Positions 1 through 15,470 of a DNA stretch of 25,546 nucleotides are shown here, in pieces (the first letter of the stretch is position 1; each line of letters begins with the position of its first letter). Origin of the DNA: a virus; the IMG/VR virus record IMGVR_UViG_3300010392_004285; one strand, written 5' to 3'. A program made the translations under genes and the position numbers. Under the pieces are notes generated by a model. That model worked only from the letters and a program-made list of their open reading frames with translations. It was not told the DNA's origin and did not search any database.

Positions 1-377
1 ACCAAAGAGGATTCATTTCACTTAATGATAGTGTACAAGCACTTATGATTGCAGTGAAAAATGAACCGGAACAAGGTCATGTTCAGGTATGGAATCAGTT
101 GAGTGAGTGGCACTCAATGAATGAAATAGCAGGAATGGTAGTTGAAGTAGCTGAGTCAAGAGGAATGGAAATAAGTACTCAGCATATTCCATCACCAAGA
201 ACAGAGTACACTGGTAATCATTACTATAAGTACTCAACAGAAAAGCTTGCAAGCTTTGGATATAAACCAACAAGAACAATACTACAAGAAGTAGATTATG
301 TATTCAACGTCTTAGCTGAGTCAAATGAATACAATGATCTAAAAGATGTTGTAATACCAAAAATAAAGTGGAGATAG
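1..377 (+). CDS. 3' end of a UDP-sulfoquinovose synthase (SQD1/SqdB-like) NAD-dependent epimerase/dehydratase; the gene begins upstream of the window
   Basis: The reading frame is open from nt 3 to the stop at 375-377. The C-terminal sequence (VWNQLSEWHSMNEIAGMV...IPSPRTEYTGNHYYKYSTEKLASFGYKP...VIPKIKWR) aligns by eye to the Arabidopsis SQD1 C-terminus (RVFNQFTEQFSVNELASLV...[27 protein letters not shown]...IMPSVSWKK). It is also similar to the C-terminus of the 5978..7174 product. Confidence 0.6.
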   Translation, partial: QRGFISLNDSVQALMIAVKNEPEQGHVQVWNQLSEWHSMNEIAGMVVEVAESRGMEISTQHIPSPRTEYTGNHYYKYSTEKLASFGYKPTRTILQEVDYVFNVLAESNEYNDLKDVVIPKIKWR

Positions 378-378
378 T

Positions 379-1353
379 ATGAAGATTTTGTTTCCAGTTG
401 TTGATAGGTCTATAAGAGTGGCCACACATTTTACTCAATTTCAAAAAGCTTTGAGTAAAGTAGCCGATGTTGATTTTGTAATGAGGAAAATACCAGAGGG
501 TTATAAGACAGGTAATTATGCTAAGAAAGTACTTACGGGACAGATAAAACCAAAAAGGATATTAGATAGTTATTTCGAAAAGGATTATGACTTTATAGTC
601 ACTGACTCTGATTTTGTCTTTGTCCATGAAAATTGGAAAAGTACAAAAATTCCAAAGGCTATAATAAAGGAAGACATTTATAGTGTAAACTCGGGTTTGC
701 AAGTGAAGTGGGCTAAAGAGAATAAATTTGATATAATTTTCTATAAGTATAAGAACCCATTTTTTAAAAAATATAGAGCTGTTGAAAATATATTCAGGTG
801 TATGTGGTCACCACATTCAGTTGACATAGAAATGTTTAAAGATTATGGATTGAAAAAGAAGTATGAAGTATTGTTGGTAGGAAGACGTGGCAAAAATACT
901 TATCCAAAAAGAAATAGATTACATCACTTATTGAAAGGCAAGAAGTATTTCACATCAATCAATAGACCATTGGAGTCAAATGTGGGATGTGAAAAAGAAT
1001 GTTTAGATAAGTGGCCAGTAAAAGAAGACTATGCTAAATTATTAAATCAAGCAGAAATATGTGTTACAAGCGGACTTTCTTTTGATTATCCTGTTATGAA
1101 GTACTTTGAAATACCTGCCTCAAAATGTTTGCTTATGTCAAATTGGTTTTCAGAATTAGCCGATCTTGGTTTTAAAGATGGAGAAAATATGGTTGTGATT
1201 GATTTCAAAAACTTAGACTCTCAAATAAGATCACTTTTAAATAATAAAGAAGAATTAAAAAGAATACAAAATAATGGATATGAACTTATTCATAAATTCC
1301 ATACGTGTGATATAAGAGCAGACACCATGGTAAGGAGATTAGAAGAATGGTAG
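379..1353 (+). CDS. Putative glycosyltransferase (CgeB/Glyco_trans_1_2-like C-terminal region), paralogue A of the 3882..4853 product
   Basis: The ATG has a GGAG RBS 6 nt upstream. It is 324 aa and clearly paralogous to the 323-aa 3882..4853 product; the C-terminal block DYPVMKYFEIPA...NGYELIHKFHT matches KYPVMKFFEIPA...NGYELVHEQHT. Family assignment is tentative. Confidence 0.45.
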   Translation: MKILFPVVDRSIRVATHFTQFQKALSKVADVDFVMRKIPEGYKTGNYAKKVLTGQIKPKRILDSYFEKDYDFIVTDSDFVFVHENWKSTKIPKAIIKEDIYSVNSGLQVKWAKENKFDIIFYKYKNPFFKKYRAVENIFRCMWSPHSVDIEMFKDYGLKKKYEVLLVGRRGKNTYPKRNRLHHLLKGKKYFTSINRPLESNVGCEKECLDKWPVKEDYAKLLNQAEICVTSGLSFDYPVMKYFEIPASKCLLMSNWFSELADLGFKDGENMVVIDFKNLDSQIRSLLNNKEELKRIQNNGYELIHKFHTCDIRADTMVRRLEEW

Positions 1354-1934
1354 AAAAAGCAAAAATGAAGGAGCCAACAGCCGCTCAGTATGACGTGCAC
1401 TTTAAAAAACAAGTTGTTGGTAATCCTAAACAGAGAAAGAAAAATCAATGGCACAGAAGGGGATTCTATGAAATAGCAAAAAGTTTTTTACCTAAAGACA
1501 AGGGAGTAATTGAACTTGGTTGTGGTGATGGATTTTTTACAAATTTTTTAGATGAAGGACAAGGATACCTCGGCATTGATTTTTGTACAGTACTCATAAA
1601 TCATGGTAGAAAAATGTATCCTAATCATACTTTTATACAGGCAGATGTAAGGGAACCAGGCTTATCAATGTTATTCACAGATAAGTTTTCTTATGTTTCC
1701 ATAGAAGTAATGGAGCATATAAAGAATGACTTAGAAGTTATTGCAAGTATACCAACTGGGTCTGATTTTATATTTTCAGTTCCAAGTAGGGATAATATGT
1801 TTCATGTTAGATATTTTAAGAGCTTCGATCAAATAAAAGATAGATATAAACACCTATTAGAGTTTTTAGATCACGGTAAGCACGAAACAACTCAAGGTAA
1901 TTTTATAAGAGTCAGTAAAACAATAAGAAAGTAA
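1347..1934 (+). CDS. Class I SAM-dependent methyltransferase
   Basis: It has SAM motif I VIELGCGDGFF and a downstream acidic-loop/post-II motif (FSYVSIEVMEHI). It overlaps the upstream gene by 7 nt (ATGGTAG), so it is translationally coupled to the GT-like gene, and has an AAGGAG RBS. Confidence 0.7.
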   Translation: MVEKAKMKEPTAAQYDVHFKKQVVGNPKQRKKNQWHRRGFYEIAKSFLPKDKGVIELGCGDGFFTNFLDEGQGYLGIDFCTVLINHGRKMYPNHTFIQADVREPGLSMLFTDKFSYVSIEVMEHIKNDLEVIASIPTGSDFIFSVPSRDNMFHVRYFKSFDQIKDRYKHLLEFLDHGKHETTQGNFIRVSKTIRK

Positions 1935-1947
1935 TAATGGAGAATAA

Positions 1948-3900
1948 ATGAACAATATTGAAGTTCAAAAACTTAGAAGCGATACATTGAAATACTTTGG
2001 TGAGGGTCGTGCTAATAAGATAGACAAGATGAATAGCCGTCAGTTAGAAGATTTGAAAAGAGAAATTCATCAAATAAAACTTAAGAGTATGCCATCACAT
2101 GCGGAATTGAGAACAAGGAAAAAGAACATGGTTGTATTAGATGCTGGTTCACCATGTCCATCACATGCAGAATTGAGAGTAAGGAAACGGGAAGCTAGAG
2201 AAAAAGCTTCATTTGGACCCGAAATTTCTGTAATTATTCCATATATGCATACACCAGAGAGGTTTCCATTATTAATGTCGTGTATATCTTCTTTGAGTTC
2301 TGAAGTTGAGATATGTGTAGTTGAAATTGGTAAAAAGAGAAGTGTTTTCTTACCACCAGATGATTTTGAATATATGTTCGTATATTATTCTAACATGATG
2401 CATAGAGGATGGGCATTAAACCTTGGCGCTAGACATCTAGCGACAGGTAGGAAGTTGGTTTTATTGGATGCTGATGTAATAATACCAGATAACTTCTTTG
2501 ATATGGTAAAGTGGTGTGACTATCCAGCAGTTGCTTGGAATAAGATGTATTATTTAGATGAACATAATACTAGAGATTATATGCTACGTTTATTACAGAA
2601 AGGTGAACGAGGTATATTTAGTGAATATGCAGTAAAAGAAAAATGTGAAACTGTAAAAGAACCAAGATTTGATGGTCCAGCAGGTGGTATAACTGTGGTG
2701 CCAAGAGATATATTTTTCCAATTAAAAGGAGTTCCTGAAAACTTTGAAGGCACTTGGGGTGGTCCGGATAACGCTTTCGCAGCAAAACTTCGAGCATTTG
2801 GCAATCCATTTAAGACGTTGAATTTGGATAGTATACATCTTTATCACTCAAAGAATACTCCAAGAAATAACAATATTGCTTTGAAAGCAAGAACAATGAT
2901 GCGATGGACAAAAGGACAATGGGCAAATGAAATAAACGTAGTTGGTAATAATTGGGGTAATAAGAAAAAATCCGTCTCTAAAGTTGATACACAAATGAAG
3001 TATGTCTTACCTGATTATATGAACGTCAGCCTATTGAGAAATATTGCTATAGGTAATACTGAACAAGAATATATTGAGCCAGGTATAGTTATTGATGATT
3101 TATGTAAGATGTGGTCTGGTTTTAATAGAGGAACTCTAAAAAGAGTATTTGACTCTAAAGAAACAATGCTTACTTTGGCAATGTTGTCACTGATTAGAAC
3201 TGAAACAATGTTAAGTATGTTGGATCACTGGGAAGCTACTAGATACATAAAATCGAATATAGCTTTTAATGTACAGGGTAGAGAATGGTTAAGCAATATT
3301 AATAAAAAACTAATTGAAGATAAAGTAGAAGAATATTTCGATAAAAGTTTTTTGACTTTTACAAATTCAAATAGAGGAACTGGTGTTCCAAGACATAATA
3401 TGACACGTAAGGCACTTGAGTTCGATACACCTTATATTATGACTACAGATGATGATATGTTTTTCCCACCGGGCTCAGTTGAAGCGCTTATTTCTATTTT
3501 AGAAGATAACCCAGACTACGGCGCGGTGGATATATGGGTCCATCCAAATTTAAATGCCTGGTTTATAAGACCGGATAAAATGATGTATAGACAACCAACA
3601 TCACCATTTGGTCTTGTTGATGGTATGGGATCAGCCGCATCCGTTATAAGGAGAGAAGTATTTAATACTTGTGATTATGATCCTAATTACTACGTAGGTT
3701 GGGCGGATATTGATTTTTGTATGCAAATGAGAAAGAGTAAATGGAAGTTGGGTATTCTTGCAATACCTGATTATAAAGCGTTAAATCTTAAACAAAGGGG
3801 AACAGATACTTATAAGAGATATGCTCAATTTAGACATGATGCTCAACATCTTGGTAATAGTTCTGTGAGGTTTCAGCAAAAATGGCACATGCAGATATAA
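1948..3900 (+). CDS. Two-domain family-2 (GT-A fold) glycosyltransferase
   Basis: The N-domain has ISVIIPYMH...LVLLDADVIIP (DxD) and ...TWGGPDNAF, which resembles the GWGGEDDD block of GT2/GT-A enzymes. The C-domain has YIMTTDDDMFF (DxD) and VGWADIDFCMQMRKSKWKLG, which resembles GT2 GxEDxDLCxR. An N-terminal ~90 aa leader carries a duplicated PSHAELR(T/V)RK(K/R) peptide. Confidence 0.65.
   Translation: MNNIEVQKLRSDTLKYFGEGRANKIDKMNSRQLEDLKREIHQIKLKSMPSHAELRTRKKNMVVLDAGSPCPSHAELRVRKREAREKASFGPEISVIIPYMHTPERFPLLMSCISSLSSEVEICVVEIGKKRSVFLPPDDFEYMFVYYSNMMHRGWALNLGARHLATGRKLVLLDADVIIPDNFFDMVKWCDYPAVAWNKMYYLDEHNTRDYMLRLLQKGERGIFSEYAVKEKCETVKEPRFDGPAGGITVVPRDIFFQLKGVPENFEGTWGGPDNAFAAKLRAFGNPFKTLNLDSIHLYHSKNTPRNNNIALKARTMMRWTKGQWANEINVVGNNWGNKKKSVSKVDTQMKYVLPDYMNVSLLRNIAIGNTEQEYIEPGIVIDDLCKMWSGFNRGTLKRVFDSKETMLTLAMLSLIRTETMLSMLDHWEATRYIKSNIAFNVQGREWLSNINKKLIEDKVEEYFDKSFLTFTNSNRGTGVPRHNMTRKALEFDTPYIMTTDDDMFFPPGSVEALISILEDNPDYGAVDIWVHPNLNAWFIRPDKMMYRQPTSPFGLVDGMGSAASVIRREVFNTCDYDPNYYVGWADIDFCMQMRKSKWKLGILAIPDYKALNLKQRGTDTYKRYAQFRHDAQHLGNSSVRFQQKWHMQI
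2092..2189 (+). repeat. Two ~33-nt imperfect direct repeats (2092-2124 and 2157-2189) inside the GT2 gene, encoding the PSHAELR(T/V)RK(K/R) peptide twice
   Basis: ccatcacatgcggaattgagaacaaggaaaaag matches ccatcacatgcagaattgagagtaaggaaacgg at 28 of 33 positions. Confidence 0.6.
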
Positions 3901-4853
3901 AAATACTATGGTTAGCAACAGATAGAACTAAACGAGTTGCTAATATATTTGGTCCTTTACAAAAAGAAGTATCAAAAATAGCAAAAGTTCATTTTATTTT
4001 TAGACAATTACCATTAGGTATGTTGCCAAAAGCTTGGCAACAAAAGTTCACTAAAGGCAAGGAAAAACCACTGAGATTATTAAATCCTAAGTTTGCAAAC
4101 GAATTTGACTTCATTATGATTGATGCTCCATTTGCTTTTCTTGATGAAGATTGGGATAAGATAAAGACAAAAAAGGGTGTGTTAATAGAGGACCAACATG
4201 GTGATAATCTTGAATATACTAAAAGATATATGAGTCATGGATTTGATGTGTTTTTTACTAGATACAATAATATTTTAAAACAACATCCATGGCTAAAGGA
4301 TCAGACTATAAAATGGTTGCCTCACTCATTTGATCCAGAAGTATTTAAAGATTATAGAGAATATAAAAAGTGGGATTGTTTGATGGTCGGTAGAACCCAA
4401 CCAAAAATATATCCACTAAGATGGAAAGCACATGAACAAATGAGTAATTCTGATGTGGCCTATAATAGAGTAGAAAGACCAGAAGAAAACGTACCAGAAC
4501 AAATGAGATGGCCAATTCACAAAGAGTATGCGCAGTTAATAAATTGTTCTAAAATATCATTTACTTGTACCAGTGTATTTAAATATCCTGTTATGAAGTT
4601 TTTTGAGATACCAGCATGTAACTCATCTTTATTTGCTGACTATAACAAGGAGATAGGTGATTTAGGATTTGAACCAAATAGAAATATGGTTGACTTAAAT
4701 GGAGTTGGAGATATAACACTTTTAGTCAAAAGTTGGTTAAAATCACCAAAAATGTTGAAAGAATTATCTCAAAATGGATATGAATTAGTGCATGAACAAC
4801 ATACAGCTAAGAAAAGGGCTGAACAATTTATTGATTATGTAGAGGAAATATGA
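3882..4853 (+). CDS. Putative glycosyltransferase (CgeB/Glyco_trans_1_2-like), paralogue B of the 379..1353 product
   Basis: It is 323 aa and roughly 35-40% identical by eye to the 379..1353 product, with the same domain order. The ATG at 3882 overlaps the upstream GT2 gene by 19 nt, so the exact start is uncertain. Confidence 0.45.
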   Translation: MAHADIKILWLATDRTKRVANIFGPLQKEVSKIAKVHFIFRQLPLGMLPKAWQQKFTKGKEKPLRLLNPKFANEFDFIMIDAPFAFLDEDWDKIKTKKGVLIEDQHGDNLEYTKRYMSHGFDVFFTRYNNILKQHPWLKDQTIKWLPHSFDPEVFKDYREYKKWDCLMVGRTQPKIYPLRWKAHEQMSNSDVAYNRVERPEENVPEQMRWPIHKEYAQLINCSKISFTCTSVFKYPVMKFFEIPACNSSLFADYNKEIGDLGFEPNRNMVDLNGVGDITLLVKSWLKSPKMLKELSQNGYELVHEQHTAKKRAEQFIDYVEEI

Positions 4854-5458
4854 AAGATTACCTGAAAGTAAATGAAGAAAAAACAAATCAACTTCTTAGA
4901 AAACTTAAAGATCAAAGGTATATGAATGCCAAAAGAAATGCCAAAAGAAATACCTTTAAATTTATTAAGGGACTCATAAGTAGAAAATGGGAAATACTTG
5001 ACATAGGATGTAGGGATGGTATGTGGTTAAATATATTAAAAGGTGCTAAGTTTAATAACTTAAGAGGTATTGATATTTCAGAAAAGGCACTTGAAATAGC
5101 TCGAAAGAAAGGTCATAATGTAGTGAGAGGAGATGCACAAGAGTTACCATTCCCAGACGAGGAATTTCATTTTGTTAGTATAATTCACACATTAGAACAT
5201 TGTCCCGAACCCCAAAAGGTACTATCTGAAATAAAAAGAGTACTTAAACCAAATGGTAGAATACTTGTAGTGGTTCCATTGCAGAAGAAGGAGCCGGTGC
5301 CAACCGTGTGGGCACATTACCATTGTTTTAGCAGTTCGAAAGAAGTTATTAATATGCTCGTTAATAATGGATTTAAAAAGATTAAAGTAAACGCAAAACA
5401 AAGACCTCATAATAGGTTCTTGTTTAGGAAAATAAGACATAAAGATAAGGAAGAATAA
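4850..5458 (+). CDS. Class I SAM-dependent methyltransferase (second copy, diverged)
   Basis: It has SAM motif I ILDIGCRDGMW, FVSIIHTLEHC, and ATGA overlap with the upstream paralogue-B GT-like gene. This GT-like + MTase arrangement mirrors 379..1934. Confidence 0.7.
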   Translation: MKDYLKVNEEKTNQLLRKLKDQRYMNAKRNAKRNTFKFIKGLISRKWEILDIGCRDGMWLNILKGAKFNNLRGIDISEKALEIARKKGHNVVRGDAQELPFPDEEFHFVSIIHTLEHCPEPQKVLSEIKRVLKPNGRILVVVPLQKKEPVPTVWAHYHCFSSSKEVINMLVNNGFKKIKVNAKQRPHNRFLFRKIRHKDKEE

Positions 5459-5985
5459 TGGCCGGACACTGGAATATAATAATTGATTTATTAAAAAACG
5501 ATCCTCCAAAGATATGTGCTGAAGTTGGTGTATATAGAGGACGGTTTGCATCACAAATACTTGGTAGATTTTCTGAAATTACAACTTATTATTGTATTGA
5601 TACATGGAAACATTATGATGACTTCACTGCAATTTTACGCCCACAAGGAGAAATGGCTAAATGTGATTTTAATAAAATATTCCGTGATTTTAAAGTCAAA
5701 ATAAAACCTTATAAAAGTAAAGTTAAAATATATAGAATGACTAGCAAAAAAGCAGCCAAACTGATTAAAGATGGCACCTTAGATTTTGTTTTTATAGATG
5801 CTAACCATGCTTATGATTATATTAAGGAAGACATAGGAATATGGTTGCCAAAGGTTAAGAAAGGTGGTGTAATTTCTGGACATGATTACAATGTCAAACG
5901 ATTTGGAGTAACTGAAGCAGTTGATGAATTACTACCAAAGGCAAATTCAAAGAAAACAGTTTGGTACTGGAGGGTAAATGGATAA
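5458..5985 (+). CDS. TylF/MycF-like (Methyltransf_24 / macrocin O-methyltransferase-type) SAM-dependent sugar O-methyltransferase
   Basis: It has EVGVYRG at the SAM site and the hallmark FVFIDANHAYDYIKEDIGIWLPKVKKGGVISGHDY block, which resembles DGDHSYE...Y.KV..GG.IIFDDY of TylF/MycF. The start ATG overlaps the upstream stop (TAATG). Confidence 0.6.
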   Translation: MAGHWNIIIDLLKNDPPKICAEVGVYRGRFASQILGRFSEITTYYCIDTWKHYDDFTAILRPQGEMAKCDFNKIFRDFKVKIKPYKSKVKIYRMTSKKAAKLIKDGTLDFVFIDANHAYDYIKEDIGIWLPKVKKGGVISGHDYNVKRFGVTEAVDELLPKANSKKTVWYWRVNG

Positions 5986-7174
5986 TATTTTAGTAATGGG
6001 TGGTGATGGTTTTTGTGGTTGGCCAACATCTTTACATTTATCCAGACATGGGTATAATGTAGTTATTGTAGACAACTTAGTAAGAAGAAAAACAGATATT
6101 GAACTTGGATGCGATTCTCTTACACCAATATCACCTATACGAGAAAGAATTAAAGCATGGAAAGAATTAACTGGAAATGAAATTGCATATAAGTATATAG
6201 ATGTTTCAGACCACTATCATAGAATTTTGAGTTTGATAAATGAATATAAACCAAAAGCGATTGTACATTTTGCGGAGCAAAGAGCTGCTCCGTATTCTAT
6301 GAAGTCATCGTTCCATAAAAGATATACAGTTAATAATAATTTAAATGCCACTAATAATATACTATGTGCGATTGTTGAATCTGGATTAGATATTCATTTG
6401 GTTCATCTTGGAACTACAGGATATTATGGATATTCAGATGTAGGTATGATGATACCGGAAGGATACTTATCAGTAAAAGTTGATGTAGAAGGTGATGAAA
6501 GAGAAATTGAGATAATGTATCCACCAAGTCCTGGAAGCGTATATCATATGACAAAATGCCAGGATGCTATTCTATTTTTATATTTCAATAAAAATGATGG
6601 AGTAAAGGTAACAGACTTACATCAAGGTATAGTGTGGGGAACACAGACAGAAGAAACAAAACTTGATGAAAGATTGATTAACAGATTTGACTATGATGGT
6701 GACTATGGAACAGTTTTGAATAGATTTCTAATGCAGTCACAAATAGGATATCCACTAACAGTGTATGGAACGGGTGGACAAACAAGGGCTTTTATACATA
6801 TACAAAATAGTGTAGAATGTATAAGATTGGCTGTTGAAAGTACTCCATCCGATGAAAAAGTAAGAATTTTTAACCAAACAACAGAGTGTTTAAAAGTATA
6901 CGATTTAGCTCAAAAAATTAGTACAATTACAGGTGCTACAATAAGAACATATGATAATCCACGAAACGAAGACCCAGAAAATGATCTCAAATTTGTAAAT
7001 GATGGTTTATTAAATTTGGGTTTGAAACCAATTACTTTAGACAATGGTTTGATGGAAGAAGTAATGGATATAGCAAAGAAATATGGTCATAGGTGTAATA
7101 AAGATAAAATAATATGTACTTCATTATGGAGTAAAAACAAAGAAATAGATTTTATAGGGAAGGAAATTGTATGA
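5978..7174 (+). CDS. UDP-sulfoquinovose synthase (SQD1/SqdB/Agl3 family) extended SDR
   Basis: The N-terminus [34 protein letters not shown] matches the SQD1 signature [44 protein letters not shown] matches HFGEQRSAPYSM. The catalytic Thr sits in LGTTGYYGY (SQD1 LGTMGEYGT). The YHMTK Tyr-His-x-x-Lys matches YHLSK. [10 protein letters not shown] matches TDLNQGVVYG, and LNRF...[16 protein letters not shown] matches LNRF...GHPLTVYGKGGQTRGY. Confidence 0.75.
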   Translation: [398 protein letters not shown]

Positions 7175-8100
7175 AGAAACCGAAAATATTATTAATAACT
7201 GATGTATGGGGATGGGGTGGTCACCATCGTGGAGAACAAATAGTAAATTGGTTGTCTGATGAATTTGAATTTGAGCTGATAACTCAGGCAATGTTTGTTA
7301 GACAACAATATAAGTTAAAACTTAATGAGTATGATTTATATTATCCATTATTTCATGTACAATTACAGTTAAAGGATTTACAGGACAGAATGGATAAAGT
7401 TGTAACAGTTGTAACAGTTAGACAACCCATAAAAGAAAAATTTGCAAAGTCTGGTGTTAGTGCCAAGGAAGGTTTTCTAAGGCTTGCAAACAAATGCAGA
7501 GCAGTATTTGTCAATAATATGCTGGCATTAAGAGAGCTAAGAACATATTATAAAGGCCCGACATTCTATGTTCCAAGGGGAGTAGATGAAAAGCTATTTT
7601 CATATAGTCCTTATCCAAGTGGTACATTTTCTGCTTGTTTTGTTGGCAAAGGTAGGATGCCAGAAAAGGGATATAGTAGTCATATAGTACCGGCCTGTGC
7701 TAGATCAAATACACGTATTATTTCCAATATTAAAAATTATAGAAATGCTGACTCACAGGATATTTTAAAAACACAGATATATGATAGAGCGCATGTTTTG
7801 ATGGTGGCAAGTACTTTTGATGGAACGCCAAATCCAGCACTTGAAGCTGCTTCATGTGGTAGACCAATTTTATCTAATAGAATCGGTAATATGCCAGAGT
7901 TTGTAGAGAGTGGAGTTAATGGATTTTTAGTTAGAAGAAATATTAATGACTATGTAGAGAAGTTAAATTGGATGAAAAGAAATACTGCAAAGTGTGATAA
8001 GATGGGTCAAAGAGCTAGACAAAAAATAGAAGATGAGTGGTGTTGGAGAGAAACTCTTAATAGGTATGAAAGGCCAGCACTTAGGGTAGTTTTAAAATAA
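7171..8100 (+). CDS. GT4-family (GT-B fold) glycosyltransferase; candidate SqdX/SQD2-like sulfoquinovosyltransferase by context
   Basis: The C-terminal GT4 motif VLMVASTFDGTPNPALEAASCGRPILSNRIGNMPEFVESGVNGFLV is compared with SqdX [46 protein letters not shown]. The ATGA overlap with the SQD1-like gene mirrors the bacterial sqdB-sqdX adjacency. Confidence 0.65.
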   Translation: MKKPKILLITDVWGWGGHHRGEQIVNWLSDEFEFELITQAMFVRQQYKLKLNEYDLYYPLFHVQLQLKDLQDRMDKVVTVVTVRQPIKEKFAKSGVSAKEGFLRLANKCRAVFVNNMLALRELRTYYKGPTFYVPRGVDEKLFSYSPYPSGTFSACFVGKGRMPEKGYSSHIVPACARSNTRIISNIKNYRNADSQDILKTQIYDRAHVLMVASTFDGTPNPALEAASCGRPILSNRIGNMPEFVESGVNGFLVRRNINDYVEKLNWMKRNTAKCDKMGQRARQKIEDEWCWRETLNRYERPALRVVLK

Positions 8101-8117
8101 AATGTGAGGTGAATAAA

Positions 8118-8477
8118 ATGAGTGAAGTAGAGTTTTATTATAATGGAGAAAAAGCGTTTAGAACATATGAATATGGTTCAGATTATTACTTTGATGATGG
8201 ACATTCATATGCATCATCAACTACTTCTGCCAGCTATGCCGCATCGGCTACTTCTGATAGTGCTTTAGCTACACAGTATGCATTACAGTCATATGCTGAG
8301 AAGCTGGCTAATAGAATGTATGAAGATAACTTAAAAGATGTTGATAAAGATTATGTTGCTGGTATGATATATGCAATACTAATGAAAGAAGATATACCTA
8401 AATCAACAGTAGAAAGACTTATGGACGATAGACCAGGGAACGAAAAATTATTTAAAGACGAGGATTTTTTAATATGA
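8118..8477 (+). CDS. Hypothetical protein with a Ser/Thr/Ala-rich low-complexity segment
   Basis: The ORF track starts at a GTG at 8109. An in-frame ATG at 8118 has a GAGG RBS 9 nt upstream, so I call 8118. The product contains SSTTSASYAASATSDSALAT. I recognised no family. Confidence 0.5.
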   Translation: MSEVEFYYNGEKAFRTYEYGSDYYFDDGHSYASSTTSASYAASATSDSALATQYALQSYAEKLANRMYEDNLKDVDKDYVAGMIYAILMKEDIPKSTVERLMDDRPGNEKLFKDEDFLI

Positions 8478-9274
8478 AAAATGTTTTAGTGACAGGCGCA
8501 AGTGGTTATATTGGACAAAATATGATAAGGCACTTGGAGACAAAAGGATGTAGATCGTTTCCTTATGATGTAAAAATGAGGGAATGGGATAGATCAGATA
8601 TAAATGATTTTAAAAAATATGATGGAGTTGTTCACCTAGCTGCTCTATCGGGTATAGTGGCGTGTCAAAATGATATTGACACAGCAATAATGGATAACAT
8701 AATAATATCAACTAAGATATTAGAGAAATCATTAGAGGCTAAAATACCCATAGTATTTACTTCTAGTCAATCAGCAAAGAATCCAACTAGTAGTATATAT
8801 GCTACAATGAAAAGAACAGTTGAATTAATGGCAAGAGATGTGATGAATAGAGGTGGTGATGTAAAATTACTTCGCTTAGCTAATGTGTATGGTGGATTTG
8901 AGTATGTAAAGAAAAAACAAACAGTTATAAAACAGTTTTTGTTAAAGAGAGCTAAAGGTGAGATAATACTTATCCATGGCGATGGAAGACAAGAACGTGA
9001 CTTCATACACGTAGACGACGTGTGTGAATTTATCTGGTTATCTTTGACTCATAAGGATAAGATAATGGAACCTATTGATATTGGTACGGGTATTGGAACT
9101 AATATGCTTGACTTGGCCAGAATGTGTAGACACCAATCAGCTTTTACTGATCGCAGAGATGTTGGAGAAACAAGTGGTATAGCTGATGTAACCATGGCTA
9201 AAGAACTGTTTGACTATAAAGCACCGAATAGAATACAGTCATATCTTGATACGGACCCAAGTTTACTTTCTTAG
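8474..9274 (+). CDS. NAD(P)-dependent sugar epimerase/dehydratase/reductase (extended SDR)
   Basis: It has the Rossmann motif VLVTGASGYIGQNMIRHL and the catalytic YATMK (YxxxK). The start overlaps the upstream stop (ATGA). Confidence 0.7.
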   Translation: MKNVLVTGASGYIGQNMIRHLETKGCRSFPYDVKMREWDRSDINDFKKYDGVVHLAALSGIVACQNDIDTAIMDNIIISTKILEKSLEAKIPIVFTSSQSAKNPTSSIYATMKRTVELMARDVMNRGGDVKLLRLANVYGGFEYVKKKQTVIKQFLLKRAKGEIILIHGDGRQERDFIHVDDVCEFIWLSLTHKDKIMEPIDIGTGIGTNMLDLARMCRHQSAFTDRRDVGETSGIADVTMAKELFDYKAPNRIQSYLDTDPSLLS

Positions 9275-9315
9275 TTGAATAGGATATAATAGAAGAAAAA
9301 GTTGGAGGAAATGAA

Positions 9316-9771
9316 ATGTTTGAAGACATTGTAAAATTAAAGTTCGAAGGTGTCGATCTTGGAAATAGAGAGATTGAACCAGAAATCCGAGCACAGTTAA
9401 GAAAAGGTCTTGACTATGGTATAGGTATGATAGAGGATGCAGAAGGTGAAAACCTTGATGTTGAATTGAAAGAATTAATTAATAGATTTTTCGATCAGAG
9501 CATGGATGAAATAGCCCAAATGTATTTGGATGCTTTTACTGCTGATGAGCTGATTACTATGCTGGATTTTGAACTGACACCTTTGGCAAAAAAGAAGTTG
9601 GAAGTTTCATTTAAACTTCAAAAGTTTATGGCAGATGGTCTTGCTAAGTTTATGATGGATGAAATGAAAGCAGAGGAAGACCCACAAGAAGATTTTGTTG
9701 ACGCTTTGAAAAGGTTTGATTGGGATAGTCAAGAAGGTTTAGATAATGTAGTATGGGATTCAAAGGAGTAA
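9316..9771 (+). CDS. Hypothetical acidic protein
   Basis: It has a GGAGG RBS 7 nt upstream. It is 151 aa and strongly acidic. I recognised no family. Confidence 0.5.
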   Translation: MFEDIVKLKFEGVDLGNREIEPEIRAQLRKGLDYGIGMIEDAEGENLDVELKELINRFFDQSMDEIAQMYLDAFTADELITMLDFELTPLAKKKLEVSFKLQKFMADGLAKFMMDEMKAEEDPQEDFVDALKRFDWDSQEGLDNVVWDSKE

Positions 9772-9776
9772 AAATA

Positions 9777-10049
9777 ATGGGTTTATTTGGTGACATATTC
9801 GAAGATGATGATTTTGAAATATCAAGTGAAGAAGAAGAAATTGAACTTGAACTAGAAGAAGATATAGATGATTGGGGTACGCCAAAGAAAAGCAGAGGCG
9901 CTACCTGGGACACCGGTAATAAACCGGATATCTGGAACGCTGATGAGCCATGGACATGCGACGACGACTGTGATCCGAAATGTGTTGGTGGTGATTGTGG
10001 TCCTGATACCGCTAAGAAAAGCTTCGATGTGGATGACTTCTTTAGCTAA
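9777..10049 (+). CDS. Hypothetical very acidic protein with a Cys/Asp-rich C-terminus
   Basis: The ORF track begins at 9753 inside the upstream gene. The ATG at 9777 has an AGGAG RBS 8 nt upstream, just after the upstream stop, so I call 9777. The C-terminus reads WTCDDDCDPKCVGGDCGPD. Confidence 0.45.
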   Translation: MGLFGDIFEDDDFEISSEEEEIELELEEDIDDWGTPKKSRGATWDTGNKPDIWNADEPWTCDDDCDPKCVGGDCGPDTAKKSFDVDDFFS

Positions 10050-10726
10050 TCACTAACAAAAGGTTTTATAAAGTCGTCATAAACTCTTTGGTGTTTTATC
10101 CAATAATCTTGTTGACCACCCGCAGACACATCGCCCGGTTCTGATATAGCTATGAATCGGGCGGTTGGTACGTTTAGGCCATGGTATCCATAAGATGCGC
10201 ATTTCAATAGAAAAGCCCAGTCAAGAAGTCGTTTATACTTGTTATCAGTAACTAAACCTACTTTATCAATTACACTCATTTTAAACATTGAGTTTGAACT
10301 AATGTAATTGCCTTGTGTCAAACGACTTAAATCCCAAGGATCAGCCGGGAACTTCCTATTTACAGCTCCTTTAAATTCAAACCCCGCATATGCAAATCCA
10401 ATATTATCTTCCGAATCCTTTAAAGCTTTATACAATCTATCCAACATATTCCTACCGAGTACTATATCCCTGTCTATCATTATGTAGTACTTAGGAAGGT
10501 CTGGGATATTTTTCTTTGCCCATTTTATACCTTCTAAAGCGTTGGTTGGTATATTATGATCGCCTTCGCTGGATATCCAAAAGTACTTCAGAGTATTTCT
10601 CTTAATTGTCTTTTTTGTATCCTTGCTTACCCAATCTCCTGATTTTAATGGTGTCACAACTAACAAATCAGGAAACTTTGTTGCTCTTATTACTTCGATT
10701 TTATTCCTAGTCTTTCTATTCGCCAT
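10046..10726 (-). CDS. Hypothetical protein, possibly GT-A-like glycosyltransferase (DxD-type)
   Basis: It is 226 aa with YYIMIDRDIV (a candidate DxD) in a layout reminiscent of small GT-A capsule/LPS transferases. The assignment is weak. It overlaps the + strand gene convergently by 4 nt. Confidence 0.3.
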   Translation of the reverse strand: MANRKTRNKIEVIRATKFPDLLVVTPLKSGDWVSKDTKKTIKRNTLKYFWISSEGDHNIPTNALEGIKWAKKNIPDLPKYYIMIDRDIVLGRNMLDRLYKALKDSEDNIGFAYAGFEFKGAVNRKFPADPWDLSRLTQGNYISSNSMFKMSVIDKVGLVTDNKYKRLLDWAFLLKCASYGYHGLNVPTARFIAISEPGDVSAGGQQDYWIKHQRVYDDFIKPFVSD

Positions 10727-11037
10727 TCATCCTCATTATCATCACATTCTTTAAAGTCTTTTCTTCTATTTCTAATTTCTTTAAACCATTTACCAAATTG
10801 TCTTAACTTTCTGAATAACCATTTGTCTTTAATTTTACTCCACACGTTTTTCTCCTCCCAAATAGCTCCACAAATCGCTATTATGAAAGCGATGGGTCCT
10901 AATAAGCATATGAATCCCAAGAATAATTTCCATACCCAGTGTTCGCCATCATACTCATCATTCTCTAATTGGTAAAAAACCATTATAGTACTGCAAATGA
11001 CCCACACATGTGTTATTATCCAGAACCACCACGGCAT
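10690..11037 (-). CDS. Small membrane protein with two predicted TM helices
   Basis: The hydrophobic segments are FWIITHVWVICSTIMVF and LFLGFICLLGPIAFIIAICGAIW, and the C-terminus is basic. It overlaps the downstream gene by 37 nt. Confidence 0.45.
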   Translation of the reverse strand: MPWWFWIITHVWVICSTIMVFYQLENDEYDGEHWVWKLFLGFICLLGPIAFIIAICGAIWEEKNVWSKIKDKWLFRKLRQFGKWFKEIRNRRKDFKECDDNEDEWRIERLGIKSK

Positions 11038-11051
11038 TATTCATATCCTTT

Positions 11052-11348
11052 CTATAGTCTTTCAGCTAGTCGTTTGATAGAAGCTTCGAAGTCAGTCTTC
11101 ATCGCTTCTCGTTCTTCATCAAGAGTTTCGAAAAACTTTGTTACACCAAGTCTTTTCGTATCTTCTTGCATCTCAGCCATCATTCTATATTCACTCAAAA
11201 AGAAAACAGCAGATATTACATTCAAATCTTGATAAACTTCTTCCGCATCGCTTACATTTACATCTTTAAATGTTATCGACACAGATGGTGTTATACTTGA
11301 ATAATTTTGCGTATTTATCGTTGCTTTTTTACTTACAGTTATATCCAT
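11052..11348 (-). CDS. Hypothetical protein
   Basis: It is a 98-aa ORF with an ATG start, packed tightly against its neighbours. Confidence 0.45.
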   Translation of the reverse strand: MDITVSKKATINTQNYSSITPSVSITFKDVNVSDAEEVYQDLNVISAVFFLSEYRMMAEMQEDTKRLGVTKFFETLDEEREAMKTDFEASIKRLAERL

Positions 11349-11354
11349 TACAAT

Positions 11355-12221
11355 TTACCTCATTAAACAATTTTTTATTACTTCTACTACATTTTCTATC
11401 AAAAACTCTGGGTATAATGTCTTAACATTATGATATATATCATCTATTAAACACCACTTTATCTTCGCATGTTGTCTAACGATCCAATCAACATCCTCTA
11501 AATTATCCACAGTTAACTTATGAAACATATTACCATACCATTTATGTTCTAGTGGTAACAACGGCACGCATCCATCTTCCATTATATAAAATGTCCATGG
11601 ATTTAAGTACCCTATTTCATAATTCTTTTTGCTGTCAATAAGTACTGTGAAGTCAACTTCTGCCCAGTCAATCATGGCTTGATTTACCATATTGTCACGT
11701 TCATATTGTTGATACTTTACTTTATCTAATTTTTCAGCCTTATATAGAACCTTCTTATCAGGGAATAATTGTGCGTACTTCCTGTAGTACTTCTCAAACG
11801 ACTTCAACTTGTCTTCAAGATTTACAGTTGAATAAGCCAGAGCAAACGGCCTCTCCTCCTCTCTATCGAAATCAGTTTTGATTTCATCAAGCCAGTGAGG
11901 TAGATAGCCAAATTCTCTCCTGTTCTGTAAAGCAGGCTCAAAGAAAAATACCTTGAACTTTTTCAACCAGTCATATTCTCTTTTAGTCATTGCTAACTCA
12001 CCATCAAATATGACAACTGGTATCTTTGTTCTTATGTAATTCTCAATTATAGCCGCTTGCATGGCATACTCATCCGGCATTATTGATTGGTCAACCCAAT
12101 CAATAAATAACCCGTCAAGTTTAGGCATTCCTCTATCCATTAAATCATACACATTTATAACAGGCAAGGATTCCCTTAACTTGTTCACAATATTTTCTCT
12201 AAAGGATATTACTCCAATCAT
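11355..12221 (-). CDS. Hypothetical protein (288 aa)
   Basis: It is a long, uninterrupted ORF that overlaps the upstream gene by ATGA. I could not assign a family with confidence. Confidence 0.5.
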   Translation of the reverse strand: MIGVISFRENIVNKLRESLPVINVYDLMDRGMPKLDGLFIDWVDQSIMPDEYAMQAAIIENYIRTKIPVVIFDGELAMTKREYDWLKKFKVFFFEPALQNRREFGYLPHWLDEIKTDFDREEERPFALAYSTVNLEDKLKSFEKYYRKYAQLFPDKKVLYKAEKLDKVKYQQYERDNMVNQAMIDWAEVDFTVLIDSKKNYEIGYLNPWTFYIMEDGCVPLLPLEHKWYGNMFHKLTVDNLEDVDWIVRQHAKIKWCLIDDIYHNVKTLYPEFLIENVVEVIKNCLMR

Positions 12222-12541
12222 TTTTTAGTTATTGACCTTCCCCTTGTTTTAGGCTCTTCTTTTTTAACTTCTTTACCTTTTGCCTTACCTTTTGATTCTG
12301 CTGCTTGTTCCAGCAAATAAGTATCAATAATTTTTTGTCTTACTGGTACGGTAATGGCATCAAGTCTACTTCTTCTTTCGAATTGAATTGTTTTAAAAGT
12401 CTTACCTAAGAAAGTTCCAAGGTAAGCTAGTGCTTCCTCTTGGCTATATGCTGCAATACATGCAGACCATAATTTTTGCTCCCCATCTTCACTACTCCTA
12501 ATTTCATAATCAATTCTAAATACACTAATTCCGTCTGGCAT
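12218..12541 (-). CDS. Hypothetical protein with a Lys-rich basic C-terminal tail
   Basis: It is 107 aa and ends KGKAKGKEVKKEEPKTRGRSITKK. Confidence 0.5.
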   Translation of the reverse strand: MPDGISVFRIDYEIRSSEDGEQKLWSACIAAYSQEEALAYLGTFLGKTFKTIQFERRSRLDAITVPVRQKIIDTYLLEQAAESKGKAKGKEVKKEEPKTRGRSITKK

Positions 12542-12758
12542 CTCCTAAATCCTCCTCGAGTACATCGAATACCTCTGTATACTCTATATTTTTTCCTTTT
12601 GATTTAATCACTTTGAAATAGGTTATTTGTTGTCCTATTTCTTTTGTGTCCTTCTGACCTATCATAGCATGACCATTAAGAAAAAGATCATCTTTCTTTA
12701 ATTTAGCATTCACAAGGTCTTCTACTACCCTAAGTCTTAACCATTGATATTTAGTCAT
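12525..12758 (-). CDS. Hypothetical protein
   Basis: It is 77 aa and overlaps both neighbours in operon-like fashion. Confidence 0.45.
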   Translation of the reverse strand: MTKYQWLRLRVVEDLVNAKLKKDDLFLNGHAMIGQKDTKEIGQQITYFKVIKSKGKNIEYTEVFDVLEEDLGDARRN

Positions 12759-13059
12759 TTTGACTTTTTTCCTCCAAATCTTTTAAAATTCTATAAATTT
12801 CAGTCAATTCTGTTTCAAAATCGTCCTTGAAAGAGTAAAAGGAATCACCAATTAGACCTAATCTGAACTTACATTTTTTTGCTGCTTCATCTACTGAGTT
12901 ACTACCTACAATTCTTTCCTCAATGCACTGTTCACATCGTTCTGGTTCAAACCCTCTAGCATCATCTAAAACTGCAACTGACAGATTTTCATCATAATAA
13001 CCACATATAAACTTTCCACTTCCGAATTTCAGAAATTCACATTTCTCTAAACATCTCAA
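12751..13059 (-). CDS. Hypothetical Cys-containing protein, with an apparent TTG start
   Basis: There is no in-frame ATG. A TTG at 13059 sits 8 nt downstream of a GGAGG, so I take it as the start. It has scattered Cys residues (C..C...C..C pattern). Confidence 0.45.
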   Translation of the reverse strand: MRCLEKCEFLKFGSGKFICGYYDENLSVAVLDDARGFEPERCEQCIEERIVGSNSVDEAAKKCKFRLGLIGDSFYSFKDDFETELTEIYRILKDLEEKSQND

Positions 13060-13076
13060 CTACATCACCTCCTGGA

Positions 13077-13349
13077 CTACTCCTTATCCTTTTCGTCCTC
13101 TTTTATATACTTCCTTATTTTCATGGCTCGTTTCATTGTATCTACGGCCTTTTTACTCGGTTTCTTATTGATTGTTTGACCCTTTGGCATCAAGTTGACT
13201 CTTTTCTTCCTTGGTTTCTTTCTTCTTCTTGTTATATTTCCCTCTTTATCTATATCAACTTCATACTTATCAACTACTTCATTGGTCTCATAATCAGTAA
13301 CCGTTACTTTTCCTTTTCCTTTCTTCTTAGGATATATGTCTTCATACAT
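13077..13349 (-). CDS. Lys/Arg-rich highly basic small protein; possibly a DNA-binding or internal protein
   Basis: It is 90 aa with KKKGKGK...RRRKKPRKKR...KKPSKK. Confidence 0.5.
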   Translation of the reverse strand: MYEDIYPKKKGKGKVTVTDYETNEVVDKYEVDIDKEGNITRRRKKPRKKRVNLMPKGQTINKKPSKKAVDTMKRAMKIRKYIKEDEKDKE

Positions 13350-13515
13350 CGTCTGGCCATGCCTCCCCGAAATGCTTTATCTTCCATTCTGTTCTATGAA
13401 GTACTCTTGCAATATGTTCCAATTTCTGGTCAATTCCAGCAAGTGCTTCATCCTGCATTTCCATAACTGCATAAAACTCAATATTCAGTGCTTCATAATC
13501 AGTTGGTTCACGCAT
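13342..13515 (-). CDS. Small hypothetical protein (57 aa), not in the supplied ORF track
   Basis: I found it by hand. ATG at 13515..13513 follows AAAGGAAAAGAA. It translates to MREPTDYEALNIEFYAVMEMQDEALAGIDQKLEHIARVLHRTEWKIKHFGEAWPDDV. Its stop overlaps the start of the 13077..13349 gene (ATGTATGA), and it fills an otherwise unexplained 180-nt gap. Confidence 0.35.
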   Translation of the reverse strand: MREPTDYEALNIEFYAVMEMQDEALAGIDQKLEHIARVLHRTEWKIKHFGEAWPDDV

Positions 13516-13527
13516 TTCTTTTCCTTT

Positions 13528-13812
13528 CTATATCCAATCCATTTCATCCATTATTTTTGCTTTCTTTACCTGTGCTTTATTATATGACATTGTTTTTGGT
13601 TGTTCTTCTTCTGGGTCTACTCTTTCTATGTTAAGATATGATCCCTTTGCCAATATAAATTTTGGTAAATAATCACCTGTTGCTTTTTTATCACATTCAT
13701 CACAAAACCAATAATCACCATTATAAGTTGCTATTCGCATCACATCTGATTGAATAATTTTATATGGTTGTTGTCCACTTCCCGGTAAATATGTTATTTT
13801 CCACTGAGTCAT
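13528..13812 (-). CDS. Small protein with a CxxC zinc-ribbon-like motif
   Basis: It is 94 aa with FCDECDKK and overlaps the upstream uvsX by ATGA. Confidence 0.5.
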   Translation of the reverse strand: MTQWKITYLPGSGQQPYKIIQSDVMRIATYNGDYWFCDECDKKATGDYLPKFILAKGSYLNIERVDPEEEQPKTMSYNKAQVKKAKIMDEMDWI

Positions 13813-14936
13813 TTCTTTAAGCTCCTTTTCACAGTTTTTTTCTTCATTGTTGGCTTCGGCTTTGGTGGTTCTGGCTCAAATTTATCTGCCTCTTGTACCA
13901 ATGCCTCTGCTTCTTTTACTTCTTGGCTTACAGTTGAGTATCCAGTATTCTCCAACCACTTATCTATTTTCTCAACTAAGCCAGATATTTGTGGCAGCCA
14001 TTCTTGTGCTTTGATTTCACCTTGTACTTTATCAGCACCGTATGTATACCATCCACCTCCACCTCTTTTCATTATATCAGATTCTACGGCCAAATCCATT
14101 ATACCAGCCCACTTATTGATACCATTCTTGTAGTCAATATCAATTGTAGCCTGTTGGAATGGTGGATACATTCTATTCTTTAAGGTAGTTGCAGTGATTC
14201 TATTACCAATGACTGCACCACTTTTAACATTACCCTCTTTTAAGTACTCTTTCCTAAGAGATATTAGAATTGATGGGAATAACTTCATCGCCTTCCCACC
14301 ACCTATCTGGTCAGGCATTGGTACTGTTGAAGGTGAACCATAATAGTGACCACAAGCGATCGCTAATGAATTTTGCCCAATACAGACATTCAAGAGTAGT
14401 TTCAAAGTACTCCTAATTTCTTTCTGTAATAGACCTTGGTCTGCCTTCGGCTCACCACCTACAGCATCAGTGAATGACTTATATCTATCAAGACCACCAA
14501 CTGAGTCAACTCCAATGACATATCCTTGTTCACCTGATTCTCTTATCTGTGCAATGGCTATCTTAACTTCATGTATCCATGGTGTGTATATATACAGGAT
14601 ATTTTTTGGATCAAGTCCCCATCTTAGACAGAACTCATCAGTAATACCACCTTCAGTGTCTATTATGATTGGTTTATAACCAAGCTTTTGAGCATTAGCC
14701 ATACACAATACCATAAAACTTGACTTGAAACTATGCTCTGGTCCAACAATAGCCACTAAGTTTCTTGAAGGAATACCACCTCTTAAAGAACCTGATAAAA
14801 TTCTATTCAAGTCCAATGCCGGTGTGGATAACATAAATCTACCAGTTGCTATTTCTGAATCTGCTAAAACACTTACATGCGCACCTTTCACGTTCTTTTC
14901 TATACTTTTCTTTAAATTATCAAAAACTTCACTCAT
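13809..14936 (-). CDS. uvsX: UvsX-type RecA-like recombinase
   Basis: ILSGSLRGGIPSRNLVAIVGPEHSFKSSFMVL aligns to T4 UvsX ALSGEITGGMQSGLLILAGPSKSFKSNFGL, which is the Walker A region. It is 375 aa, typical for UvsX. Confidence 0.9.
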   Translation of the reverse strand: MSEVFDNLKKSIEKNVKGAHVSVLADSEIATGRFMLSTPALDLNRILSGSLRGGIPSRNLVAIVGPEHSFKSSFMVLCMANAQKLGYKPIIIDTEGGITDEFCLRWGLDPKNILYIYTPWIHEVKIAIAQIRESGEQGYVIGVDSVGGLDRYKSFTDAVGGEPKADQGLLQKEIRSTLKLLLNVCIGQNSLAIACGHYYGSPSTVPMPDQIGGGKAMKLFPSILISLRKEYLKEGNVKSGAVIGNRITATTLKNRMYPPFQQATIDIDYKNGINKWAGIMDLAVESDIMKRGGGGWYTYGADKVQGEIKAQEWLPQISGLVEKIDKWLENTGYSTVSQEVKEAEALVQEADKFEPEPPKPKPTMKKKTVKRSLKK

Positions 14937-15468: not shown

Positions 15469-15470
15469 GT

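Follow-up and report, generated by a model that had tools for sequence, protein, structure and literature searches.

UDP-sulfoquinovose synthases of the SQD1/SqdB/Agl3 family are extended short-chain dehydrogenases/reductases (SDRs), and to our knowledge the synthesis of sulfoquinovose has been attributed nearly wholly to the sulfolipids of phototrophs and to a few archaeal glycans. Viral glycosylation islands are known from chloroviruses (A064R-type glycosyltransferase and methyltransferase), mycobacteriophages (virion glycosylation genes) and T4-like cyanophages (glycan islands); we know of none that includes SQD1-family enzymes or sulfotransferases. One earlier report describes a putative UDP-sulfoquinovose synthase as an auxiliary metabolic gene, a single gene of a Mu-like virus from the Cariaco Basin (Mara et al. 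2020; PMC7785012). The window analysed here, a stretch of 25,546 nucleotides from IMG/VR virus record IMGVR_UViG_3300010392_004285, contains a complete SQD1-family gene at 5978-7174 (SQD1-B), followed by a glycosyltransferase family 4 (GT4) gene at 7171-8100, and the 3' end of a second SQD1-family gene at 3-377 (SQD1-A). A first-pass annotation of the window had interpreted the first two genes as a sqdB-sqdX-like pair that could direct host synthesis toward the sulfolipid sulfoquinovosyl-diacylglycerol (SQDG) and spare phosphate for phage DNA, or else make sulfoquinovose for a glycan.

The plus-strand block at 1-10049 is probably a variable island for glycan biosynthesis, carried by an uncultured T4-like phage, that makes a sulfonated, methylated glycoconjugate, and a convergent gene for a 226-aa protein at 10046-10726 probably belongs to it. 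Because the transferase next to SQD1-B does not appear to be a sulfolipid synthase, the likely product is a glycan, sulfonated and methylated, and not a membrane lipid that spares phosphate. SQD1-B would bind NAD+ and host UDP-glucose, oxidise C4, eliminate water across C5-C6, add sulfite at C6 and re-reduce C4 to yield UDP-sulfoquinovose. SQD1-A would supply a related but different sugar by a reaction that is probably not identical, since its substrate loop is rebuilt. The soluble transferases (the GT4-fold enzyme, two Glyco_trans_1_2 enzymes, a double GT2 protein and possibly the 226-aa protein) would build an oligosaccharide, which four methyltransferases would O-methylate, and a 266-aa SDR would supply another modified sugar. 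The glycoconjugate would be formed on an acceptor accessible from the cytoplasm, with virion proteins or a precursor of the host envelope as candidates, and would not be SQDG. Sulfoquinovose for a glycan is the better of the two suggestions in the first-pass annotation.

The gene for SQD1-B encodes 398 amino acids from an ATG start. The motifs quoted for it earlier are all present, namely GGDGFCGW (residues 8-15), IVDNLVRR (30-37) and YHMTK (189-193). The motif given as LGTxGxYG reads LGTTGYYG (144-151), in which the catalytic Thr stands but T-T-G replaces the T-M-G that characterised enzymes have. The alignment of SQD1-B with Arabidopsis SQD1 (1QRR) spans residues 2-386, takes in both SQD1-specific insertions and scores 309 bits (E 4e-91), and the next PDB family, UDP-glucuronate decarboxylase, reaches 47 bits. 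Among NCBIfam models, NF041015 (UDP-sulfoquinovose synthase) gives 331 bits, compared with 48 for GalE and 35 for RmlB/dTDP-glucose dehydratase. The protein also has the GxxGxxG motif, the Thr/Tyr/Lys triad and the His of YHxxK that is typical of the family. By sequence, then, SQD1-B is an SQD1-family protein and no generic epimerase or dehydratase. Its identity is 41% to SQD1, about 64% to roseobacter SqdB-like proteins and 70% to Desulfobacteraceae homologues, and UDP-sulfoquinovose synthase activity is likely.

The active site was compared in an alignment of SQD1, SQD1-B with its viral and cellular relatives, roseobacter SqdB-like proteins and full-length relatives of the edge gene; the roles of residues were taken from mutagenesis of Agl3 (PMC4388408) and from a review (PMC8987622). 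SQD1-B retains H96, E99, Q100, R101, T145, G147, Y149, S180, Y182, H183, K186, Q209, R327 and many other invariant positions. The catalytic Thr, Tyr and Lys and the associated His are T146, Y189, H190 and K193 in SQD1-B itself, and these columns are invariant in the alignment. The loop HFAEQRAAP conforms to HxxEQR, and its H97 and R102 are the counterparts of His95 and Arg101 of Agl3. In Agl3 of Sulfolobus, Ala substitution of H95, R101, M145, Y182 or K186 abolishes activity and E147A leaves 12% (PMC4388408). Two of the positions tested in this way differ in SQD1-B, where Met146 is replaced by Thr and Glu148 by Tyr. The first change marks a whole clade, as [ST]TG is found in 118 of the 120 closest database homologues; homologues from roseobacters, Nitrospirae and Pseudomonadales are of the TMG type and read LGTMGVYG. 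The second position is not diagnostic, because these presumed true SqdB homologues have Val there.

Frame 3 of the edge gene at 3-377 gives 124 amino acids to the stop, which align with residues 263-383 of SQD1 (58 bits, E 1e-14) and with positions 261-384 of NF041015 (101 bits), and the earlier statement that the window holds two SQD1-family genes is borne out. The fragment is 23.5% identical to the matching part of SQD1-B, and full-length SQD1-A and SQD1-B proteins are about 31% identical. Scans of viral and metagenome contigs returned about 100 loci with SQD1-A relatives, and the full-length relatives came from these scans of related loci; a word-indexed protein search with the 124-aa fragment gave short fragments only. 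Completion of the edge gene from upstream sequence, proposed in the first-pass annotation, succeeded through relatives only: contig L033, which matches 9.8 kb of the island exactly, adds 16 bases, whereas contigs L058 (95% identical over the fragment) and L034 (89%) supply the N-terminus missing from the window. The full-length relative at L058:1876-3042 reaches 260 bits with 1QRR and 366 bits with NF041015, which places SQD1-A in the SQD1 family as well.

The motifs of this relative are IGTTGEYD, YHTSK and NLAHIPSGPYS. Across 69 non-redundant sequences the SQD1-A signature is G[TS][TAV]GEY[DN], YHxSK and NL[AG]H[INC]PS, the last replacing HFxEQRS. The loop NL[AG]H[INC]PS is present in 67 of the 69 members, L058 included, position 146 is T, A or V, and YHxSK is kept. 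The positions of H96, R101 and M146 lie outside the window and were read from L058 and the family, which has none of these three residues in its signature. With this loop change the family loses the His and Arg on which Agl3 activity depends. Of the two copies, that at the edge had been described as the more canonical, a description that does not hold: over the C-terminal region it is 28.9% identical to SQD1 (27.6% for the complete copy), and its full-length relatives reach 36% overall (41% for the complete copy) and have no HxxEQR loop. SQD1-A is a coherent subfamily that has so far come to light on viral and metagenome contigs alone. Another viral SQD1-like gene, of a third kind, was observed at 16713-17897 of L139 (ENA ERZ27279932, a 78 kb contig), in another island of glycosyltransferase, methyltransferase and PIG-L genes. 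It has canonical LGTMGEFG and YHTTK motifs, Pro at the Arg101 position (HYAEQPSGP) and the highest NF041015 score seen, 451 bits.

These differences bear on the chief alternative, a possible but unlikely one, in which one or both paralogues are neofunctionalised and stop at UDP-glucose-5,6-ene, use another nucleotide sugar or nucleophile, or make another C6-modified sugar. It draws on the replacement of T-M-G by T-T-G in both paralogues (signature: PMC8987622), on the presence of Thr and Tyr in SQD1-B at the positions where M145A kills Agl3 and E147A leaves a residual activity, on the loss of the loop His and Arg in SQD1-A, and on the release of the 5,6-ene by Agl3 itself when sulfite is absent. 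At least four further contigs (L061, L063, L064 and L142) also contain both SQD1-A and SQD1-B, so that the two are kept together in at least five independent islands; the retention of two enzymes of about 31% identity in several islands argues for non-redundant roles and different products. Against this alternative, SQD1-B keeps every other residue tested in Agl3 as well as His183, it is 64% identical to T-M-G-type roseobacter proteins, position 148 is Val in presumed true SqdB proteins, and an alternative activity is known nowhere in the SQD1 family. Somewhat more doubtful still is a bolder proposal, in which this group of large T4-like phages keeps two non-redundant SQD1 enzymes in one island, SQD1-B being a T-T-G UDP-sulfoquinovose synthase and SQD1-A (H96N, E99H, R101P) making a second, undescribed C6-modified or sulfonated nucleotide sugar. 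A strongly anionic sulfo-glycan would then be assembled on virions or the host surface with the methyltransferases and, in relatives, sulfotransferases. If the host is a sulfate reducer, at which the nearest cellular homologues hint, the sulfite would come from its dissimilatory pathway.

The GT4 gene encodes 309 amino acids, and its ATG overlaps the stop of SQD1-B as ATGA at 7171-7174, as had been reported. The protein matches generic GT4 models only, through about 100 C-terminal residues (approximately 200-300). An AlphaFold (AF2) model built on 65 homologues has a pLDDT (predicted local distance difference test) of 96.9. A Foldseek search with this model, which covered the PDB, a set that contains no SqdX/SQD2 structure, returned the retaining GT4 enzymes MshA, PimB', BshA, PglA, SenB and sucrose-phosphate synthase at 13-17% identity (E ~1e-13). 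The predicted fold is GT-B of the GT4 type with a nucleotide-sugar-binding C-terminal domain. All 108 homologues are metagenomic, mostly from phage-like contigs, and none is named a sulfoquinovosyltransferase; in JGI records they are called "glycosyltransferase involved in cell wall biosynthesis", and the SQD1 homologues "UDP-sulfoquinovose synthase". The C-terminal motif that had been likened to SqdX/SQD2 is the generic GT4 donor-binding motif in the form D-x7-E, unlike the E-x7-E of SqdX/SQD2.

For comparison, SqdX-like proteins were located with an unverified SQD2 probe sequence; the open reading frames (ORFs) that it picked in L019 and L022 are real data lying beside sqdB. These 338-aa ORFs (E 6e-44 and 1e-40, respectively) stand immediately upstream of T-M-G-type sqdB in Pseudomonadota metagenome-assembled genome (MAG) contigs, one of which is labelled Pseudomonadales. 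They match glycolipid-synthase models (Mgs, GlcN-PG synthase) along most of their length, unlike the phage GT4. The similarity of this enzyme to the L019 protein amounts to 30 bits over 48 residues only, hhalign aligns the GT4 with the SqdX-like proteins in the donor-binding C-terminal domain only (21% identity), and the same unverified probe matches 102 of its C-terminal residues only (26%). Specific full-length similarity to SqdX/SQD2 that includes the acceptor domain was not found for 7171-8100. The protein resembles SqdX/SQD2 in its GT-B fold, its GT4-type donor-binding domain, the absence of a transmembrane segment and its SQD1-family neighbour; it differs in an N-terminal (acceptor) domain without detectable similarity and in length (309 aa versus approximately 340-380). 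At the sequence level, it is a GT4-fold enzyme with an unrelated acceptor domain and no SqdX/SQD2 orthologue.

The gene order leads to the same view of the pair. Contigs L058 and L034 are the closest relatives, with about 80% nucleotide identity across the island, and in both the GT4 start codon directly follows the stop of a Methyltransf_11 gene, with no SQD1-B at the site. Window positions 5458-7170, a 1.7 kb segment that carries a Methyltransf_24 gene and SQD1-B, are an exact insertion relative to L058 and L034, and the same two genes are linked in L028/L138, L029 and L142. GT4 homologues lie 5-9 kb from SQD1-B in L028 and L029, directly after SQD1-A in L037, L064, L095 and L142, and with no SQD1-like gene within 10 kb in L140. 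The linkage of GT4 to a UDP-sulfoquinovose synthase gene is thus not conserved in L058, L034, L028, L029 and L140. Because L058 and L034 carry GT4 without SQD1-B, the supposed pair is a junction left by cassette insertion and no conserved operon unit. The island is built of modules, and neither SQD1 paralogue has one transferase as its fixed partner. Of the sqdB-sqdX-like pair, the SQD1 half stands and the SqdX half does not.

Synthesis of SQDG in the infected host by SQD1-B and GT4, which would spare phosphate for phage DNA, is very unlikely on this evidence. It has on its side that SQD1-B is a true SQD1-family protein, that the next gene has the GT4 fold of the SqdX/SQD2 superfamily and overlaps it by ATGA, and that some association of SQD1 and GT4 genes recurs in the four contigs with GT4 directly after SQD1-A. 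The restriction of similarity to the donor-binding domain, the failure to match the glycolipid-synthase models that SqdX-like proteins match, and the absence of SQD1-B from the site or its distance from GT4 in relatives all count against it. The glycosyltransferases and methyltransferases around the two genes play no part in making SQDG, and the nearest cellular homologues of SQD1-B belong to Desulfobacteraceae, which are sulfate reducers and no phototrophs. The gene content is that of a multi-transferase, multi-methyltransferase glycan island instead of a two-gene lipid pathway.

The features of the island and its convergent neighbour are as follows.

3-377, plus strand: C-terminal 124 aa of SQD1-A, the gene being truncated by the window start (NF041015 101 bits; 1QRR 58 bits)
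379-1353, plus strand: glycosyltransferase with Glyco_trans_1_2 C-terminal domain (Pfam PF13524, E 3e-12)
1347-1934, plus strand: class I S-adenosylmethionine (SAM) methyltransferase (Pfam Methyltransf_25/23/31/11)
1948-3900, plus strand: 650-aa protein with two GT-A (GT2-like) regions (Glycos_transf_2 at residues 466-569; Glyco_transf_7C at 244-293; TIGR04283 at 93-189)
3882-4853, plus strand: glycosyltransferase, Glyco_trans_1_2 (Pfam PF13524, E 2e-14)
4850-5458, plus strand: SAM methyltransferase, Methyltransf_11 (Pfam, E 2e-24), with GT4 directly next in L034 and L058
5458-5985, plus strand: Methyltransf_24 methyltransferase, first gene of the 1.7 kb cassette (Pfam PF13578, E 2e-17)
5978-7174, plus strand: SQD1-B, full-length SQD1/SqdB-family SDR of the "TTG" clade, putative UDP-sulfoquinovose synthase (1QRR 309 bits; NF041015 331 bits)
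7171-8100, plus strand: compact GT4-fold (GT-B, retaining-type) glycosyltransferase of a metagenome-only family (Pfam Glycos_transf_1; AF2 model; Foldseek)
8109-8477, plus strand: 122-aa ORF with GTG start and a Ser/Thr/Ala-rich stretch SYASSTTSASYAASATSDSALA (no Pfam or PHROG match)
8474-9274, plus strand: third SDR, 266 aa, a short extended-SDR nucleotide-sugar epimerase/reductase (Pfam Epimerase, E 6e-32)
10046-10726, minus strand: 226-aa protein, candidate GT-A transferase, convergent with the island (sub-threshold GT2 hints)

Five glycosyltransferase genes were detected in the island, besides one candidate, along with four methyltransferases and three SDRs; start and stop codons overlap, and no transmembrane segments were predicted in the island proteins. 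The glycosyltransferase at 379-1353 is a paralogue of that at 3882-4853 (35% identity) and is missing at the matching position in L058. Homologues of the 266-aa SDR are found at 42% identity in L028 and L029 and at 70-73% in L034 and L058, and two small acidic ORFs follow it at the end of the plus-strand block. The 122-aa ORF is kept in L034 and L058 at 42-50% identity; that it serves as a glycosylation substrate or carrier is pure speculation.

The 226-aa protein has no Pfam, PHROG or NCBIfam match, and a profile search against the PDB was negative. Its single-sequence AF2 model, at a pLDDT of 40.6, is too poor to use, and both Pfam and hhalign give sub-threshold GT2 matches, which together with the sequence pattern (VVTPL..., IDRD, NYISSNS) suggest a GT-A transferase. 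In 7 of 63 non-redundant loci a homologue of 55-58% identity begins at the SQD1-A stop or just behind it; the contigs in which this family lies directly 3' of SQD1-A are L039, L043, L045, L053, L055, L109 and L132. Glycosylation of DNA is an unlikely target, as nothing supports it and the number of glycosyltransferases and methyltransferases looks excessive for it.

Several points weigh against the reading of the island as a source of a sulfonated glycan. The published signature of UDP-sulfoquinovose synthases is [ST]MG..Yx3K (PMC8987622, Table 1), from which LGTTGYYG departs by T-T-G for T-M-G; given this signature and the inactivation of Agl3 by M145A, SQD1-B may not add sulfite. Its 331 bits are also below the NF041015 equivalog cut-off of 575 bits, although the roseobacter SqdB-like protein is likewise below it (341 bits), so that the cut-off is narrow and the score uninformative. 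A lipid acceptor is compatible with both the lack of transmembrane segments and the GT4 fold, since SqdX and SQD2, too, are GT4 enzymes that are soluble or peripheral. Finally, no structural gene, oligosaccharyltransferase, initiating transferase or sulfite-supplying gene was identified in the window.

Compared with the described members of the family, the window's genes are phage-encoded and lie in an island of many glycosyltransferases and methyltransferases, not beside sqdX, sqdD or agl genes. The closest functional analogy is the N-glycan pathway of Sulfolobus, in which the SQD1-family enzyme Agl3 feeds a sulfo-sugar to a glycan and not to a lipid; unlike that pathway, the window has no AglB-type oligosaccharyltransferase or dolichol-linked steps, and its host is probably bacterial. 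With the known viral glycosylation islands it shares clusters of soluble glycosyltransferases and methyltransferases in a variable, mosaic viral region. The Mu-like virus of the Cariaco Basin is also a metagenomic virus with an SQD1-like gene, which its authors read as feeding glycosylation, but it is another type of virus, and the report includes no paralogue pair, glycan island analysis or active-site comparison (PMC7785012). As far as our searches of the literature show, the T-T-G clade, the paralogue pair, the SQD1-A subfamily with its rebuilt loop, the linkage to sulfotransferases and the inteins described below are undescribed.

Homologues of SQD1-B with 70-73% identity occur in glycan islands of large phage contigs (L028/L138, L029, L141 and L142), which also carry UvsX, gp46/47 or DNA polymerase genes. 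These homologues frequently adjoin sulfotransferase and Methyltransf_24 genes, which suggests that the glycans of the relatives are both sulfated and sulfonated; the window itself contains no sulfotransferase. Genes of the Sulfotransfer_1/2/3 families flank SQD1-B at 17264-17887 and 20938-21050 in L138, at 11109-11921 in L029, and at 3220-3969 and 7388-7999 in L142. The nearest cellular homologues are those of Desulfobacteraceae (70%). One cellular locus was examined in detail, in a 2.6 Mb Desulfosarcina contig; there the gene is part of a cluster of polysaccharide genes that includes a sulfotransferase-GT2 fusion, and no simple SqdX adjoins it. SqdX-like neighbours stand beside T-M-G-type genes only, a weak trend from the small number of cellular loci compared, and the ORFs chosen in the Leisingera locus L010 as possible sqdD/sqdC-type neighbours gave no Pfam matches. 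The GC content of SQD1-B is 31.6%, close to the 34.8% of the window, compared with 41% for the Desulfosarcina homologue, which points to a long-standing resident of the phage genome. Two short contigs, L002 (JAEHCK010000166.1, from a "Thermoplasmata archaeon" MAG) and L024 (from a "Woesearchaeota" MAG), carry SQD1-B homologues of 73-75% identity with homologues of the phage GT4 and methyltransferase and look like phage fragments binned into archaeal MAGs.

Inteins typically occupy conserved, functionally important sites. In L031 (IMGVR_UViG_3300005512_004867) the homologues of SQD1-B (10001-12259) and GT4 (2313-4427) each contain an in-frame LAGLIDADG-type intein of approximately 350-400 aa. 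The insertion sites are inside YHL\|SK, the SDR catalytic motif, and DGTPNP\|CLEAA, the GT4 donor motif, respectively, which fits functional importance of both motifs.

The window is AT-rich (approximately 35% GC) and consists of two gene blocks. The plus-strand block is a tightly packed operon, in which starts mostly overlap or abut the preceding stops, and the minus-strand block extends from 10046 to 25546. The latter also encodes a phage metallopeptidase and includes the following T4-like core genes.

13809-14936, minus strand: UvsX-like recombinase (PHROG 97, E 3e-40)
15805-17988, minus strand: gp46/SbcC-like nuclease subunit (PHROG 77, E 1e-86)
24076-25059, minus strand: gp47/SbcD-like nuclease subunit (PHROG 100, E 8e-64)
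25074-25535, minus strand: gp55-like late sigma factor (PHROG 234, E 2e-31)

The replicon is therefore a phage, as the first-pass annotation had assumed, and its gp55, gp46, gp47 and UvsX genes are those of a T4-like (Straboviridae-like) core. The best match of its UvsX among 50,697 deposited phage records (INPHARED) is at most about 31% identical, which indicates a distant, uncultured T4-like phage. In megablast and tblastn searches of the same cultured or deposited records, SQD1-B had no match and GT4 had weak C-terminal matches only. The T4 late-promoter motif TATAAATA has no match in the window (3.5 expected), and no tRNA genes were found in it. An origin of the island from cellular DNA, as a host polysaccharide locus or through chimeric assembly, without a function for the phage, is hardly credible: although SQD1-B is 70% identical to Desulfosarcina/Desulfobacteraceae genes in polysaccharide clusters and has no tblastn match in cultured INPHARED phages, the island is contiguous with gp55, gp47, gp46 and UvsX and shares their GC content and strand skew, 9.8 kb of it recur identically in L033, an independent JGI contig, and these core genes also border homologous islands in IMG/VR contigs (64-132 kb) and in one NCBI contig (110 kb).

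If the genes are active, a widespread group of uncultured phages, represented by dozens of IMG/VR and metagenome contigs, makes sulfo-sugars for glycans. This would add a viral, non-phototrophic source to the sulfoquinovose cycle and extend the glycosylation chemistry encoded by viruses. The two paralogue families also provide natural variants at positions that are critical in mutagenesis, Met146 and the His96/Arg101 loop. For annotation, an SQD1-type gene followed by a GT4 gene is likely to be a trap, as this arrangement is not evidence for sulfolipid synthesis.

Two further observations concern other genes of these phages. Core genes of the relatives carry more mobile elements, at 4797-5840 in L138 and 16299-17206 in L142: in one case dUTPase is fused to a LAGLIDADG domain, and in another an intein interrupts the UvsX/RecA gene. 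In the window, an 830-aa protein encoded at 19262-21754 on the minus strand matches the shoulder domain of the major vault protein (PF11978, 88 bits, E 6e-25). It also has weak Vault_3 and Band_7/SPFH matches and no PHROG match, and a protein of this kind is unusual in a T4-like phage.

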